DNA of 64,000 nt from Escherichia phage AV119. The stretch is taken from the sequence record OR352949.1. The stretch is one strand, 5' to 3'. Positions 44,063 to 51,417 of the stretch are shown in pieces (positions within the stretch are counted from its first letter, which is position 1; the number at the start of each line of letters is the position of its first letter). Both the position numbers and the translations under genes were made by a program. The notes under the pieces were generated by a model. That model saw only the letters and a list, made by a program, of their open reading frames with translations. It was not told where the DNA came from and made no database searches.

Positions 44063-46327
44063 TCATAATTTACAGGATGAACAATCTTCAGCTTTTGGAG
44101 TTTCTATTTCATAATCATCAGTACCAGAACCATCACGGGTATTATGATAATAGAAATTTTTTCCGCCAAAATACCAAAAATACAAAAGGTCATCAATCAT
44201 TATTGACATTGGAACCTTTCCTTTTGGAAAAATCTGCGGGTCATAATATGTATTCGCTGAAGCTGATTGACATACCCATTTCAGCATAATAGCTACCTGC
44301 GTAAGATAAGGTTTATTACCTTTCTTAGCTAATTTCCATGTATAATCATATAGGTCTATGTTATGTTCAATATTGGGCACGACTTGATTAAAGGAACCCT
44401 CTTTTGATTCTTTAACAGAGACTGGTCCACGTGGAGGCTCGATACCGTTTGTACTGTTAGAAACTTGGGAAGATGACTCACATGGCATAAGTGCTGATAG
44501 TGTGCTATTACGGATGCCAAAGAGCTTAAGGTCTTCCCGCAGCGACGACCAGTCACAAACGTATTTTGGAGCTGCGATTTGGTCAATCTTTTTATTGTAC
44601 CAGTCGATAGGTAATTCGCCTCGAGACCAACGAGTGTCTGAATAATATTCGCAAGGTCCTTTTTCTTTGGCGAGCTTAATGGATGCTTTAATGAGTCCAT
44701 ACTGTAATCTCTCAAATAGTTCATGTGTTAAATCGTTAGCATCTTCATAAGAAGCAAAGTTACTTGCCAACCAAGCTGCATAGTTAGTAACACCTACACC
44801 GAGGTTACGACGCTTTTTAGCTTTTTCTGCTTCAGGAACTGGATATCCTTGGTAATCCAAAAGATTATCAAGAGCGCGAACTTGAACTTCTGCCAATTCA
44901 TTAATTTTATCTTGGTCTTGCCAATCGAAGTTATCCAACACAAATGCAGATAACGTGCACAAGCCAATTTCCGCATCAGGACTATTCACATCATTTGTTG
45001 GAATAGCAATTTCACAGCACAAGTTACTCTGACGAATAGGTGCCTTTTCACGAATAAACGGAGTGTAGTTATTCGTATTATCAATGAACTGCACATAAAT
45101 CCTTGCTGTTCCTGAACGTTCAGTCATGAGCAATTCAAATAGTTCACGAGCTTTAATACGCTTTTTACGAATATTAGGGTCTTTTTCTGCTGCTTCGTAT
45201 AATTCACGGAAACGGTCTTGGTCTTTAAAATAAGAATAATAAAGCTCTCCACCCATTTCATGCGGACTAAACAAAGTAATGTAATCGTTCTTTCCGAATC
45301 GTTCCATCATCAAATCATTCAGCTGAACACCATAATCCATATGACGAATGCGGTTTTCTTCTACGCCTTTGTTATTTTTCAAAACGAGAAGATTTTCAAC
45401 TTCCAAATGCCAAATAGGATAATAAGCAGTAGCAGCGCCGCCACGAATTCCACCCTGTGAACATGATTTAACTGCAGTCTGAAAATGTTTCCAAAAAGGA
45501 ATAACACCAGTATGACGTACTTCACCCATGCCAATCTTAGAACCTTCGGCACGAATCATACCAACGTTAATACCAATTCCAGCACGTTTAGAGATATATT
45601 CAACAATTGAAGCGGAAGCCTTATTGATAGACTTCAGCGAATCACCTGCCTCAATAACAACACATGAACTGAACTGACGAGTCGGAGTACGACAACCAGC
45701 CATAATAGGAGTTGGCAATGAAATCTGTCGGGTTGATACTGCTTCATAAAAACGGATAACATGTTTTAATCTATCAACAGGTTCATCTTGATGCAATGCC
45801 ATTCCAATAGCCATAAATGCAAACTGTGGAGTTTCATAAATTTGACCAGTGGTTTTATCTTTAACTAGATATTTTTCTTTTAATTGCATCGCCCCGGAAT
45901 AAGTAAATTCCATATCCCGCTCGTGCTTAATTTTTGATTCTAAAAATGTAATTTCTTCTGCTGAATATTTTGACAATAATTCAGGGTCATATTTACCTGC
46001 ATTTACACAATAAGAAATATGGTCAATAAATGAACGTGGTTCATACTGCCCATAAACATGCTTACGAAGAGCGAACATTAAACAACGTGCAGCTACATAT
46101 TGATAATCAGGTTCTTCAACCGAAATAGAATTCGCAGCAGCCTTAATGACAATAGTCTGAATGTCATCAGTTGTCATTCCATCACGGAGATATGATTTAA
46201 TATTTTCATATAATTCATAAGGATCTACTGATGTTCCCTCAGCTGCCCAAGATAAAACTTTAATAATTTTTTGCGGGTCAAAGCTCTGAGAAACACCACT
46301 ACTTTTGATAACATTAATTAATTGCAT
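44063..46327 (-). CDS. nrdA: ribonucleotide reductase large subunit NrdA
   Basis: 754 aa as T4 NrdA; ATP-cone N-terminus. Confidence 0.95.
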   Translation of the reverse strand: MQLINVIKSSGVSQSFDPQKIIKVLSWAAEGTSVDPYELYENIKSYLRDGMTTDDIQTIVIKAAANSISVEEPDYQYVAARCLMFALRKHVYGQYEPRSFIDHISYCVNAGKYDPELLSKYSAEEITFLESKIKHERDMEFTYSGAMQLKEKYLVKDKTTGQIYETPQFAFMAIGMALHQDEPVDRLKHVIRFYEAVSTRQISLPTPIMAGCRTPTRQFSSCVVIEAGDSLKSINKASASIVEYISKRAGIGINVGMIRAEGSKIGMGEVRHTGVIPFWKHFQTAVKSCSQGGIRGGAATAYYPIWHLEVENLLVLKNNKGVEENRIRHMDYGVQLNDLMMERFGKNDYITLFSPHEMGGELYYSYFKDQDRFRELYEAAEKDPNIRKKRIKARELFELLMTERSGTARIYVQFIDNTNNYTPFIREKAPIRQSNLCCEIAIPTNDVNSPDAEIGLCTLSAFVLDNFDWQDQDKINELAEVQVRALDNLLDYQGYPVPEAEKAKKRRNLGVGVTNYAAWLASNFASYEDANDLTHELFERLQYGLIKASIKLAKEKGPCEYYSDTRWSRGELPIDWYNKKIDQIAAPKYVCDWSSLREDLKLFGIRNSTLSALMPCESSSQVSNSTNGIEPPRGPVSVKESKEGSFNQVVPNIEHNIDLYDYTWKLAKKGNKPYLTQVAIMLKWVCQSASANTYYDPQIFPKGKVPMSIMIDDLLYFWYFGGKNFYYHNTRDGSGTDDYEIETPKAEDCSSCKL

Positions 46328-46644
46328 AAGTCCTCAACTTGAAAATCGTCTTTAAACAATCGGTTAACTATATGAGCTATTATATCACCATGACACGGCT
46401 TTGGTTTACATGTGCATCCTAGCCTCATTCCACGTAAAGGCTCTAAATGTGCTTTAGTTATTTCTCCGGATTTAATTCGACGTATAAAATCTTTTTTGAA
46501 TAATTCAATGGCAGCCTCCCGGCTGCCAGCATCTTTACCGACGTAATTTCCCCAAAATGTACCGCGGTGAATATTGACATCAAAGTCGGATTTATATTTA
46601 TTCACTACCTGGCATAGACGGCCCGCGCGGTGATAATTCGTCAT
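46318..46644 (-). CDS. hypothetical Cys/His-containing protein (nrdA.1 position)
   Basis: 108-aa ORF; [12 protein letters not shown]. Confidence 0.55.
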
Positions 46645-46873
46645 ATTGTTTTTCCGTTAAAACAGTAATATCATAGTAACAATCAGAAGAAGTTTTAACT
46701 GTAGAAATTTTATTATCAAAATACTCACGAGTCATTTTATGAGTATAATATTTTTTGCCATAAATGATAATAGGCTGATTTGGTCCTGGAACTTCTAGCT
46801 CACTTGGATTAGGAAGTGTAAAAAGAACTGCACCAGAAGTATCTTTAAATCGTAAAATCATATATCCTCGCAA
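46598..46873 (-). CDS. hypothetical protein (nrdA.2 position)
   Basis: 91-aa ORF. Confidence 0.5.
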
Positions 46874-46884
46874 TTAAATTGAAA

Positions 46885-47745
46885 TTACACCGCCATCTTT
46901 CCTTTAATTGGCGGGTGAGATACATAGTTGTTAAGAACAAAATTATGCGGCTTTGCGAATTGACTCAACCAAAATACCTGTGATTCTGTACCCCATTCAT
47001 CGAATTCATCTGGAAATTTTAATTGCAATTCGCATAAATCCATAGATTCACGACGCAAAATTTCTTTACATTGTTCTACGTGATTCATATAGATATGAGT
47101 ATTACCACCAGAAAATATCAAATCTCCCGGAATAAGATTACACATCTTAGCTACAATATGAACTAACGCAGCGTATGATGCAATGTTGAATGGCAAGCCC
47201 AAGAACACGTCAACACTTCTTTGATACCACTGTAAATCCAAATAGCCATTACGCACATTAAACTGATAGAACATATGACAAGGAGGTAATGCCATTTGCT
47301 TAAGTTCTGCCGGATTCCATGCTGAAACAATTTGACGCCTATCATTTGGCAGTTTTTTAATACGATCAATAACTTCTATAATTTGGTCTACACCGCCAAA
47401 ATCACGCCATTGTTTTCCATAAATTGGACCAAGTTCACCGCTATGGTATCCTAAATCTTTTGCTTGATTTTCGTAATTTTCATCCCAGACTGTTTTGCCT
47501 TGAATTAATGAATTATGTTGAATTAATCGCAAATCATTTACGTTAGTACTTCCTGATAAGAACCACAATAACTCAGAAATACATGCATTCCAGGCGAGCT
47601 TCTTAGTTGTTACTGCAGGAAAACCTTTAGTTAAATCCCAGCGTAATTTAGTACCGAACAAAGCAATTGTTCCTGTGCCCGTTCGGTCATCAGTTTCATA
47701 GCCATTTTCAAAAATGTCTTTAATTAAATCTTGGTATTGTTTCAT
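46885..47745 (-). CDS. td: thymidylate synthase, uninterrupted (no intron)
   Basis: 286 aa continuous ORF; T4 td carries an intron at this gene. Confidence 0.95.
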   Translation of the reverse strand: MKQYQDLIKDIFENGYETDDRTGTGTIALFGTKLRWDLTKGFPAVTTKKLAWNACISELLWFLSGSTNVNDLRLIQHNSLIQGKTVWDENYENQAKDLGYHSGELGPIYGKQWRDFGGVDQIIEVIDRIKKLPNDRRQIVSAWNPAELKQMALPPCHMFYQFNVRNGYLDLQWYQRSVDVFLGLPFNIASYAALVHIVAKMCNLIPGDLIFSGGNTHIYMNHVEQCKEILRRESMDLCELQLKFPDEFDEWGTESQVFWLSQFAKPHNFVLNNYVSHPPIKGKMAV

Positions 47746-47790
47746 TTAGTACCTTATATAAATTATAATACATTTTATGAAGCTAAATAA

Positions 47791-48138
47791 TCAATACGGT
47801 TTAGCATCAAATTTTCTCTCAATTTCAGGCGTGAAATATAATTCTTTACCGCGTTTGGAAAAGCGACCAATAATATGATAATTATTCTCATCAAACGTGA
47901 TATTACCAATATCCATAGCTTTCAACCAAATATCGATATTTCTATCCAGCTTTATGTCAAAATTCCAATACGGAGAACTATTACCGAAAATACTGCAAGC
48001 GGATTCAGTGAAACAACTGCTATAAATCTTGTCTTTAGGAACTACTAATTGATAGACACCTTTAATAAACTGAGGACCCTGCCACTTTGGCTGTTTCGCG
48101 TCTTCTTCTAATAGAATAGGGTAATAATTAAAATTCAT
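47791..48138 (-). CDS. hypothetical protein inserted between frd and td
   Basis: 115 aa from ATG 48138 (GTG at 48150 gives 119); no recognisable motif. Confidence 0.55.
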   Translation of the reverse strand: MNFNYYPILLEEDAKQPKWQGPQFIKGVYQLVVPKDKIYSSCFTESACSIFGNSSPYWNFDIKLDRNIDIWLKAMDIGNITFDENNYHIIGRFSKRGKELYFTPEIERKFDAKPY

Positions 48139-48158
48139 ATTTTCCGCCACGTGTTATT

Positions 48159-48985
<827 letters not shown>

Positions 48986-48996
48986 ATTGCCTCCTA

Positions 48997-49329
48997 TTAA
49001 AAAGGATCAGTAACATATCCGCTAGCTTTAATCATTTTAATTAACGTTAACATTCCTTTGTTAACTGCTCGTGAGATTTCATCAAAAACTTCATCACTAA
49101 AAAGTTCTAACACGCCCTTCTGAACTTTTAATTTACAGCCAACAATTTCGTCATCTCCTATAGTAAATTCGCTTCCGCCAATTCCGCCGAAAAACTTAAT
49201 TACGCCAGTTAACTGTCTTCCACGAGAATATGGGTCGTGTGATAAAGTAATATGAGTCACCCCAGGTACAGTTTTAAATTGGCAGCGGATGTTTACTTGA
49301 GCAATTCCAGTTACATGAATGTCAGACAT
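48997..49329 (-). CDS. hypothetical protein (frd.2 position)
   Basis: 110-aa ORF. Confidence 0.5.
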   Translation of the reverse strand: MSDIHVTGIAQVNIRCQFKTVPGVTHITLSHDPYSRGRQLTGVIKFFGGIGGSEFTIGDDEIVGCKLKVQKGVLELFSDEVFDEISRAVNKGMLTLIKMIKASGYVTDPF

Positions 49330-49339
49330 ATTATTTTCC

Positions 49340-49582
49340 TCAAACAGACTTTTTCACAATTTTCCAATCAGCTTTAAACTGATCAACATCAGAATGATAA
49401 ATCCAGAATCCTGCGCTTTCTCCGTCTTCATAAAGAGGACATCCATCACATTCATCTTCCCACCCCATATCGCGTAAAAGATGTTCAGCTTTTTCAACAA
49501 GCCCAGAATCTTTACCGATGATATTAAAATACCATTTACCTTTAACTTCTGAATCTTTGATGCTCTGGCGTTGTAATCTCAT
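49340..49582 (-). CDS. hypothetical protein (frd.3 position)
   Basis: 80-aa ORF. Confidence 0.5.
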   Translation of the reverse strand: MRLQRQSIKDSEVKGKWYFNIIGKDSGLVEKAEHLLRDMGWEDECDGCPLYEDGESAGFWIYHSDVDQFKADWKIVKKSV

Positions 49583-50508: not shown

Positions 50509-51417
50509 TTAAAGGTCATTCAAAAGGTCATCTAGGTCCGTGTCATCAGCACTAGATGAACTGCCAGAGCTTGAGCTCATAAAATCATCTTCAGTTTTTG
50601 TTTTGAAGTCATCAACATTGAATGCATCCAAATCATCAGCAACTTTATCAGCTTTCTTAGCGGCAGTTGCAGCGGCACCACCCATTGCAGCAGTTCCCAT
50701 AACTTGACTGAACTTAGTGCTCAGTTCTTCAAATGATTTGAATTTATCTTTAGAAGTCATTTCAGAAAGGTCAACCATTTGTTCGAACAGTTCTTTCTGG
50801 AAAGATTCATCGTCAATGTTTGGAATCGCAGATTGATTCAGGAATTTAGATTCGTCGTAGTTACTAAAACCAGAAACTTGTTTAACTTTCAGTACAAAGT
50901 TAGCACCTTCCCACGGGCAAGTTACATCAACCGGAGTTTCACCCATTTCAACATCAACTGCAATCATTGCATTGATTTTATCCCAGATTTTCTTACCAAA
51001 ACGATATTTAAATACTTTACCTTCGTTTTCTGGAGCAGCTGGGTCTTTTACAACAAGAATGTTAGCCCAGTAAGAAGTTTTACGTTTAACAAGACTGTAC
51101 TCTTTATTGTCAGTGTTGTACAGATCATTTTTACTGATGTATTGACATACTGGGCAAGAATCGTAATCACCGTGGGTAGATGAACATGTTTCAATATACC
51201 ATTTACCATTTTTCTTGAAACCGTGATTTACAAGAATTGCGAACGGTGCTTGTTCATCATTTTTAGACGGAAGAAAACGAATTACTGCTTGACCGTTACC
51301 CGCATTGTCGAGTTTCAGTTTCCACTCGCCTTTATCTTCAGAAGAAAAACCACCTTTATTTCCAGCCAGTTTAGCCATTTGTGCAGCGAGTTCAGCAGTA
51401 GATTTACGTTTAAACAT
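50509..51417 (-). CDS. 32: single-stranded DNA-binding protein gp32
   Basis: 302 aa; zinc ligands H..C..CPVC; acidic C-terminus. Confidence 0.97.

Follow-up and report, generated by a model that had tools for sequence, protein, structure and literature searches.

A conserved small gene, td.1, separates frd and td in Escherichia phage AV119 and has most likely been lost from phage T4

Phage T4 is the model in which the machinery of dNTP synthesis was defined. In its genome (NC_000866) the dihydrofolate reductase gene frd (145109-145690) and the thymidylate synthase gene td (start at 145112) share a 4-nt ATGA overlap, the td gene carries an intron with I-TevI, and mobE and segG lie nearby. The corresponding locus of Escherichia phage AV119 raises the question of what the DNA standing between frd and td is, and of whether it was gained there or lost from T4. 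A first-pass annotation of the window (the whole stretch of 64,000 nucleotides of OR352949.1 that was analysed) had described the two genes as about 410 bp apart with an ORF of 115-119 aa between them, and had compared them with the overlap and the intron of T4. This description is accurate: the gap measures 413 bp, the ORF spans 47791-48138 (to 48150 from an alternative start), both T4 features are present in NC_000866, and T4 has no such ORF at the frd-td position. The interpretation that had been attached to it, an accessory insertion at a locus of intron and endonuclease traffic, is inverted on the main point by the comparisons reported here, which indicate that the ORF, known elsewhere as td.1, is the norm and T4 the exception.

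The window sequence is identical to that of Escherichia phage AV120 (OR352950.1, Tequatrovirus), with the same coordinates. According to the ORF listing all genes of the region, a block devoted to nucleotide metabolism, lie on the minus strand, in the order gp32 - frd.3 - frd.2 - frd.1 - DUF7247 - small ORF - frd - td.1 - td - nrdA.2 - nrdA.1 - nrdA:

44063-46327, minus strand: nrdA
46318-46644, minus strand: nrdA.1 (DUF4326)
46598-46861, minus strand: nrdA.2 (DUF5496)
46885-47745, minus strand: td, thymidylate synthase, 286 aa (Pfam Thymidylat_synt 1-266/266, E=2.8e-94)
47791-48138, minus strand: td.1, 115 aa (ATG at 48138, stop at 47791; phrog_1928, E=9.3e-36)
48159-48740, minus strand: frd, dihydrofolate reductase, 193 aa (Pfam DHFR_1 PF00186, E=3.6e-19)
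48740-48985, minus strand: 81-aa ORF (PHROG 3183), its stop overlapping the start of frd
48997-49329, minus strand: DUF7247 protein, 110 aa
49340-49582, minus strand: frd.1, with frd.2 and frd.3 beyond
50509-51417, minus strand: gene 32

Positions 47746-48158 are exactly the 413 bp from the td start to the frd stop, a TGA at 48161-48159 within ...TATAAATGA..., where the T4 sequence is identical.

Were the ORF a chance or decaying reading frame within a non-coding spacer, the lack of a known domain, and of any motif visible to the earlier reader, would be explained. Its pattern of substitution speaks against this. Pairwise Nei-Gojobori comparisons among AV120, T2H, T6, one BASEL phage and two Mosigvirus-type copies gave a dN/dS of 0.035-0.065 in every case with dS above 0.1, and of about 0.04 at dS 0.7-0.97, which indicates strongly purifying selection. 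Full-length homologues have been detected at approximately 20-66% identity across many genera, the predicted fold of the protein is confident, and no Rfam family was found above threshold in the interval. Considering the dN/dS of about 0.04 together with the distant homologues, the interval appears to encode a real gene, and the chance-frame reading, which deserves hardly any credence, is refuted by conservation. Three ORFs on the opposite (plus) strand, at 47777-47878, 47875-48048 and 47897-48025, were set aside as shadows of td.1, the substitutions fitting the minus-strand frame. Regarding the start codon, an in-frame GTG at 48150 would extend the product to 119 aa (47791-48150). This codon reads CTG in the Mosigvirus copy, 348 nt are annotated for td.1 in all records, and the nearest metagenomic homologues begin with MNFNYYP, and translation thus probably begins at the ATG at 48138.

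The gene had in fact already been annotated, and is widely conserved among hundreds of phage genomes, so that it is no peculiarity of this one. Td.1 of T2H (ABI48932.1, AY262132.2) is the same gene, with 97-100% amino acid identity, the same position and the same 348 nt, and further names are RB32ORF229c (T6/RB32), ar1_242 (AR1) and Shfl2p237. The AV120 protein has E12 where T2 and T6 have K12, and otherwise nothing material differs. A tblastn search has revealed full-length copies in 554 phage records, 362 of them at 90% identity or more and 192 below 60%, and amino acid identity across Tequatrovirus is 93-100%. The match to the PHROG 1928 profile joins td.1 residues 8-115 to positions 2-125 of 126. 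The 90% cluster to which td.1 belongs contains 154 sequences, the named members of which are all called "hypothetical protein". In the literature searched, no paper mentioning the gene was found, and that on the T4 dNTP synthetase complex gave nothing relevant.

The wider distribution of the family bears on its history. The family is small and restricted to the Straboviridae. A profile search among 1.84 billion proteins gave 43 clusters at 50% identity, nearly all of 95-140 aa; a word-indexed homologue search returned close relatives only, until phage-derived homologues were used as seeds. Two long matches, P0038 (899 aa) and P0053 (742 aa), were disregarded as apparent compositional artefacts. 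Outside the T4-like E. coli phages, every locus with both flanks readable has PHROG 1928 genes straight after frd and ahead of td, and the family holds this slot in at least ten genera of the Straboviridae. Kanagawavirus, Jiaodavirus, Moonvirus, Roskildevirus, Gelderlandvirus, Tegunavirus, Karamvirus and Gualtarvirus, as well as uncultured relatives, have the family in the frd slot, Gualtarvirus being a genus outside the Tevenvirinae. In 12 of the 14 loci examined, the first downstream family gene begins 1-23 nt before frd has ended, and in most loci td likewise starts, typically as ATGA, within the end of the gene before it, which is usually a family member. A distant member, P0036, has been found on a short contig beside NMN-transporter and NadR-like genes, with no frd within 4 kb upstream.

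In many genera the slot contains two tandem paralogues (hhalign probability 97.5%, E=5e-12), both of which match PHROG 1928. In Kanagawavirus, Moonvirus, Gelderlandvirus, Karamvirus and uncultured relatives the second of these follows td.1 and precedes td; it is lacking in Tequatrovirus. It shares with td.1 a Q-K-K-W near the N-terminus, an HG-Y and a C-terminal GRF-x-K-x-G-x-x-x-F; it differs in having some 20 additional residues inserted (PTI-x-EYKRNP...) and in a stop codon that overlaps the start of td. A fusion-like protein of 195 aa from an NCBI source, P0015, joins the C-terminal portion of a nucleotidyltransferase from phage (PHROG 388) to the last 35 residues of a Klebsiella-phage td.1, and probably records an insertion or rearrangement that took place within the td.1 of a Jiaodavirus-like phage.

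The order seen in the window, FRD3, FRD2, DUF5417, DUF7247, small ORF, DHFR, td.1, TS, also recurs in other genera. T4 is without the DUF7247 gene, the 81-aa ORF and td.1. Since other genera do have DUF7247 and, in the same position, a small ORF, T4 appears to be reduced as a reference for the frd region as a whole, and a gene that is extra relative to T4 is not for that reason an inserted one. Across genera, amino acid divergence is 21-63% for td.1 and 28-49% for frd, that is, of the same order, with td.1 roughly tracking frd. Taking into account the shared slot, the overlapping codons, the shared wider gene order and the similar divergence of td.1 and frd, it is most likely that the PHROG 1928 family is ancestral at the frd-td slot, of which many genera would have kept two paralogues and Tequatrovirus one, and that T4 and RB69 represent reduced states.

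Comparison of the junction across T-even genomes, which the first-pass annotation had pointed to as a check, has revealed three alleles among T4-like E. coli phages: no ORF, td.1, and an unrelated ORF of 68 aa. Of the 35 records with the T4-type ATGA overlap, roughly half are T4 itself or its laboratory derivatives, and the RB69 junction is the same; td.1 occupies the slot in 362 records (at least 90% identity). The 68-aa ORF (PHROG 9550) overlaps both frd and td, and about 135 records have it at 90% identity or more. Phage fFiEco06 is an example (L011:854-1060), as are SHFML-26, JS98 and others. The possibility that this ORF is a truncated td.1 was dismissed, since it has no sequence similarity to td.1 and belongs to a different PHROG. 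Its homologues in Phapecoctavirus phages, at about 43% identity, suggest that the gene moves between phage families.

In the window, td.1 and its spacer are bracketed by a direct repeat, 9 nt of which are exact (TAAATGAAA) and 15 nt of which match at 13/15:

48151-48165, minus strand: left repeat copy TAAATGAAATAACAC, with a vestigial mini-ORF, ATG-AAA-TAA, and the frd stop
47734-47748, minus strand: right repeat copy TAAATGAAACAATAC, with the start codon of td

Read along the coding strand, the left junction is TATA-TAAATGAAATAACAC-GTGGCGGAAAAT-ATG(td.1) and the right junction GGTAC-TAAATGAAACAATAC-CAAG(td). The mini-ORF of the left copy mirrors the td start ATGAAACAA. In T4 and RB69 the flanks are the same as here, frd ending ...GTATATAAATGA and td beginning ATGAAACAATACCAAG, and the junction reads TATAAATGAAACAATACCAAG; the sequence TATAAATGAAACAATACC of these two phages is the exact collapse of both repeat copies. 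With nothing between the two genes, td translation can couple directly to frd in T4 and RB69, whereas here td.1 and a 45-nt spacer intervene (417 bp) and the ATG of the ATGA opens only Met-Lys-stop. The collapsed repeat in T4 fits a deletion between short repeats. The reverse event is no less compatible with it, given that the ATG at the end of frd opens a Met-Lys-stop that resembles a dead td start. Since the junction sequence by itself does not prove the polarity, loss within Tequatrovirus is treated as probable rather than proven; the ATGA overlap of T4 and RB69 would then have arisen by precise collapse of the repeat.

The same junction can be read the other way, and this is the main rival to ancestry and loss. 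In this alternative td.1 is a moron-like accessory cassette, for instance of anti-defence or host-takeover function, which was inserted in Tequatrovirus into an ancestral T4/RB69-like ATGA junction and now spreads by recombination, the frd/td neighbourhood being a merely permissive site with no functional link to it. Several features of the slot agree with such a history. It is polymorphic, with its three alleles among E. coli T-evens; it accepts foreign genes, as the Phapecoctavirus homologues of its 68-aa occupant imply; and T4 and RB69 share the ATGA junction. The junction itself is cassette-like, with the repeat flanking td.1, a vestigial td start, ATGAAATAA, where frd stops, a ribosome-binding site belonging to td.1 and a promoter-like spacer. 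Recombination has also left its mark in Mosigvirus phage Shf125875, which has a Tequatrovirus-like td.1 at 94% amino acid identity. Relative to AV120, dS in this phage rises from 0.19 at the frd 3' end to 0.70 in td.1 and 1.63 in td, a gradient indicating that the frd 3' end and td.1 form a laterally acquired mosaic tract, which would likewise suit a cassette. In the same phage the frd TGA stop has been lost (L017, 290-330), and frd reads 10 codons on and ends inside the td.1 start.

A cassette accounts poorly for the depth of the synteny, the same family being found in the same slot in at least ten genera and usually tied to frd and td by overlapping codons. A dN/dS of about 0.04 and 93-100% amino acid identity across Tequatrovirus are also atypical of arms-race genes, and td.1 has no PADLOC match, in a library of defence systems rather than anti-defence proteins. 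The cassette reading is on this evidence unlikely, though it has enough in its favour to be kept in view. What remains of the accessory-insertion claim is that td.1 is absent from T4 and that its slot is polymorphic; its status as an addition is not supported, td.1 being the majority state in Tequatrovirus (362 records, against 35 of the T4 type). On a minor point the earlier reading was right, as the frd-td slot appears variable and recombinogenic. Under ancestry and loss, the slot in E. coli T-evens would now be a presence/absence polymorphism reshuffled by recombination.

The spacer between td.1 and td carries candidate signals for expression:

47746-47790, minus strand: td.1-td spacer, 45 nt, with a MotA-box-like sequence, a -10-like sequence and a ribosome-binding site
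47787-47778, minus strand: MotA-box-like TTTAGCTTCA, a consensus match only
47767-47762, minus strand: -10-like TATAAT
47755-47752, minus strand: AAGG ribosome-binding site (before td)

The pattern GCTTYA-N10-13-TANNNT, a crude MotA-box/-10 proxy built on the T4 middle-promoter consensus, has 23 matches on both strands of the window against 9.0 +/- 3.2 in shuffles, one of them at 47783-47760. This excess is consistent with many middle promoters in an early/middle region. The spacer is present in T6 and only 13 nt long in Mosigvirus Shf125875. Its content suggests that td may be served by a middle promoter of its own in this phage, which would replace the translational coupling seen elsewhere. 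A terminator scan returned no terminator-like site between frd and td, and in the scan for sigma-70 promoters and terminators neither was enriched over shuffles. It is plausible that td.1 is co-transcribed with frd and td, and in most genera the overlapping stop and start codons would couple translation, so that similar amounts of the products might be expected.

The td.1 protein has a mass of 13.65 kDa and a pI of 6.6. The first-pass annotation had seen no recognisable motif in it, and wider searches bear this out: neither td.1 in Pfam, NCBIfam and PADLOC nor the single protein and a 58-sequence profile in a PDB sequence search gave a match, and Pfam run on all 58 family members returned scattered noise only. 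Within the family W19, G91, K95 and G97 are invariant and Q16, G27, Y29, F93 and F102 nearly so, and the window protein has them all. Across the family alignment no acidic, His, Cys or Ser residue is conserved, for which reason td.1 is unlikely to be an enzyme or nuclease.

Structure prediction with AlphaFold2 reached a pLDDT of 78.5 with 15 sequences, and of 92.4 with a pTM of 0.85 with 49 sequences. Both models share E6-12, E27-34, E62-64, H68-76, E80-82, E86-96 and E99-104, and the predicted fold is compact, with six strands and one helix. The weak structural matches listed for the 15-sequence model are dominated by OB folds (RPA14/32, Teb1, the RecO N-terminal domain, HIN and S1), which resemble the prediction in their small size and in the order of their elements (strand, strand, strand, helix, strands). 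The likeness of the modelled fold to OB folds is a weak one.

These properties would suit a protein that acts by binding, with a protein or a nucleic acid as ligand, and that serves the DHFR/thymidylate-synthase step as an accessory partner which the phage can do without. The constraint on td.1 is of a housekeeping-like kind. Since T4 and RB69 do well without it, td.1 is not needed for DHFR or TS activity. We tentatively regard it, with low confidence, as a non-enzymatic binding partner expressed with DHFR and TS. That the partner role lies specifically at the DHFR/TS step is doubtful, the conserved gene neighbourhood being the one basis for it. A more elaborate version, in which td.1 and its paralogues are a non-catalytic partner that tethers or regulates the DHFR-TS pair or their mRNA throughout the Straboviridae and was lost in T4, is improbable. 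The joint explanation, by which td.1 is a genuine gene of a family ancestral at the slot and lost in T4 and RB69, and its product a non-enzymatic partner at the DHFR/TS step, falls slightly on the probable side.

In protozoa and plants, DHFR and TS occur as a bifunctional protein, in which linkage fixes the DHFR:TS ratio and an extra segment lies between the enzymes. The likeness to the phage arrangement is a functional analogy only, and in the phage there are three separate polypeptides. If td.1 does bind DHFR or TS, it would be an extra component of the phage dNTP-synthesis complex. Classical T4 genetics missed the gene because T4 lacks it. The td.1 family is strongly constrained, is fixed beside frd, in most cases with td on its other side, in at least ten genera, and has no known structural relative.

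The neighbouring td gene differs from that of T4 in ways of its own. As had been noted at first reading, it is a continuous ORF of 286 codons; it aligns end to end with the spliced T4 td, with nothing inserted at the intron site. Three features were located within it:

between 47197 and 47196, minus strand: empty td intron insertion site
47169-47233, minus strand: silent-substitution patch, td nt 513-577, with 18 substitutions relative to T4 in 65 nt
46936-47055, minus strand: variable C-terminal TS segment, td nt 691-810, replaced (RRESMDLCELQLKFPDEFDEWGTESQVFWLSQFAKPHNF against RREPKELCELVISGLPYKFRYLSTKEQLKYVLKLRPKDF in T4 and T2)

The td group I intron (about 1 kb, at td nt 549/550) is absent, as no Rfam intron family was detected in 46500-49500, where the scan gave one sub-threshold chance match only (Yar_1, E=0.32). 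An intronless td is common, being found in T2H, RB32 and many others. The silent patch is centred on the insertion site, leaves the protein across the homing site unchanged and is flanked by nearly identical DNA. It presumably covers the recognition and cleavage site of I-TevI homing. The same allele was found in 28 records (RB32, RB33, HY01 and others), and td is uninterrupted in 28/28; the patch may be a recoded, I-TevI-resistant target. Over the replaced C-terminal segment nucleotide identity is approximately 40-45%, as opposed to 92% in the rest of td, which indicates that the gene is mosaic.

Endonuclease traffic around td and nrd could be taken to extend to td.1 itself, as a free-standing homing endonuclease. 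Several BASEL-collection records (among them MZ501106, MZ501065 and MZ501089) carry the label "putative homing endonuclease", and the mobile elements around T4 td, I-TevI in the intron together with mobE and segG, would give it a fitting neighbourhood. The protein offers nothing to sustain the label: neither td.1 nor any of the 58 family members matches Pfam or NCBIfam, none of the invariant positions is an Asp, Glu, His, Tyr or Cys that would suit a nuclease motif, the predicted model does not show a nuclease fold, and the syntenic distribution across genera argues against seg/mob-type mobility. A homing endonuclease of the GIY-YIG, HNH, LAGLIDADG or PD-(D/E)XK type is thus effectively refuted, by the missing catalytic domain or motif and nuclease fold, and we consider such an identity very improbable. 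The link that the first-pass annotation had drawn from the ORF to intron and endonuclease traffic likewise found no evidence. Another label attached to the gene, glucose-1-phosphate adenylyltransferase (OR125554, MN580668), is an annotation error, as there is no NTP_transferase match and 115 aa are too short. In Yersinia phage phiR1-RT (L021:3114-3842), an intronless td is followed directly by a free-standing gene of the opposite strand that is annotated as an I-TevI homing endonuclease, an instance of such traffic around td in another genus and unrelated to td.1.
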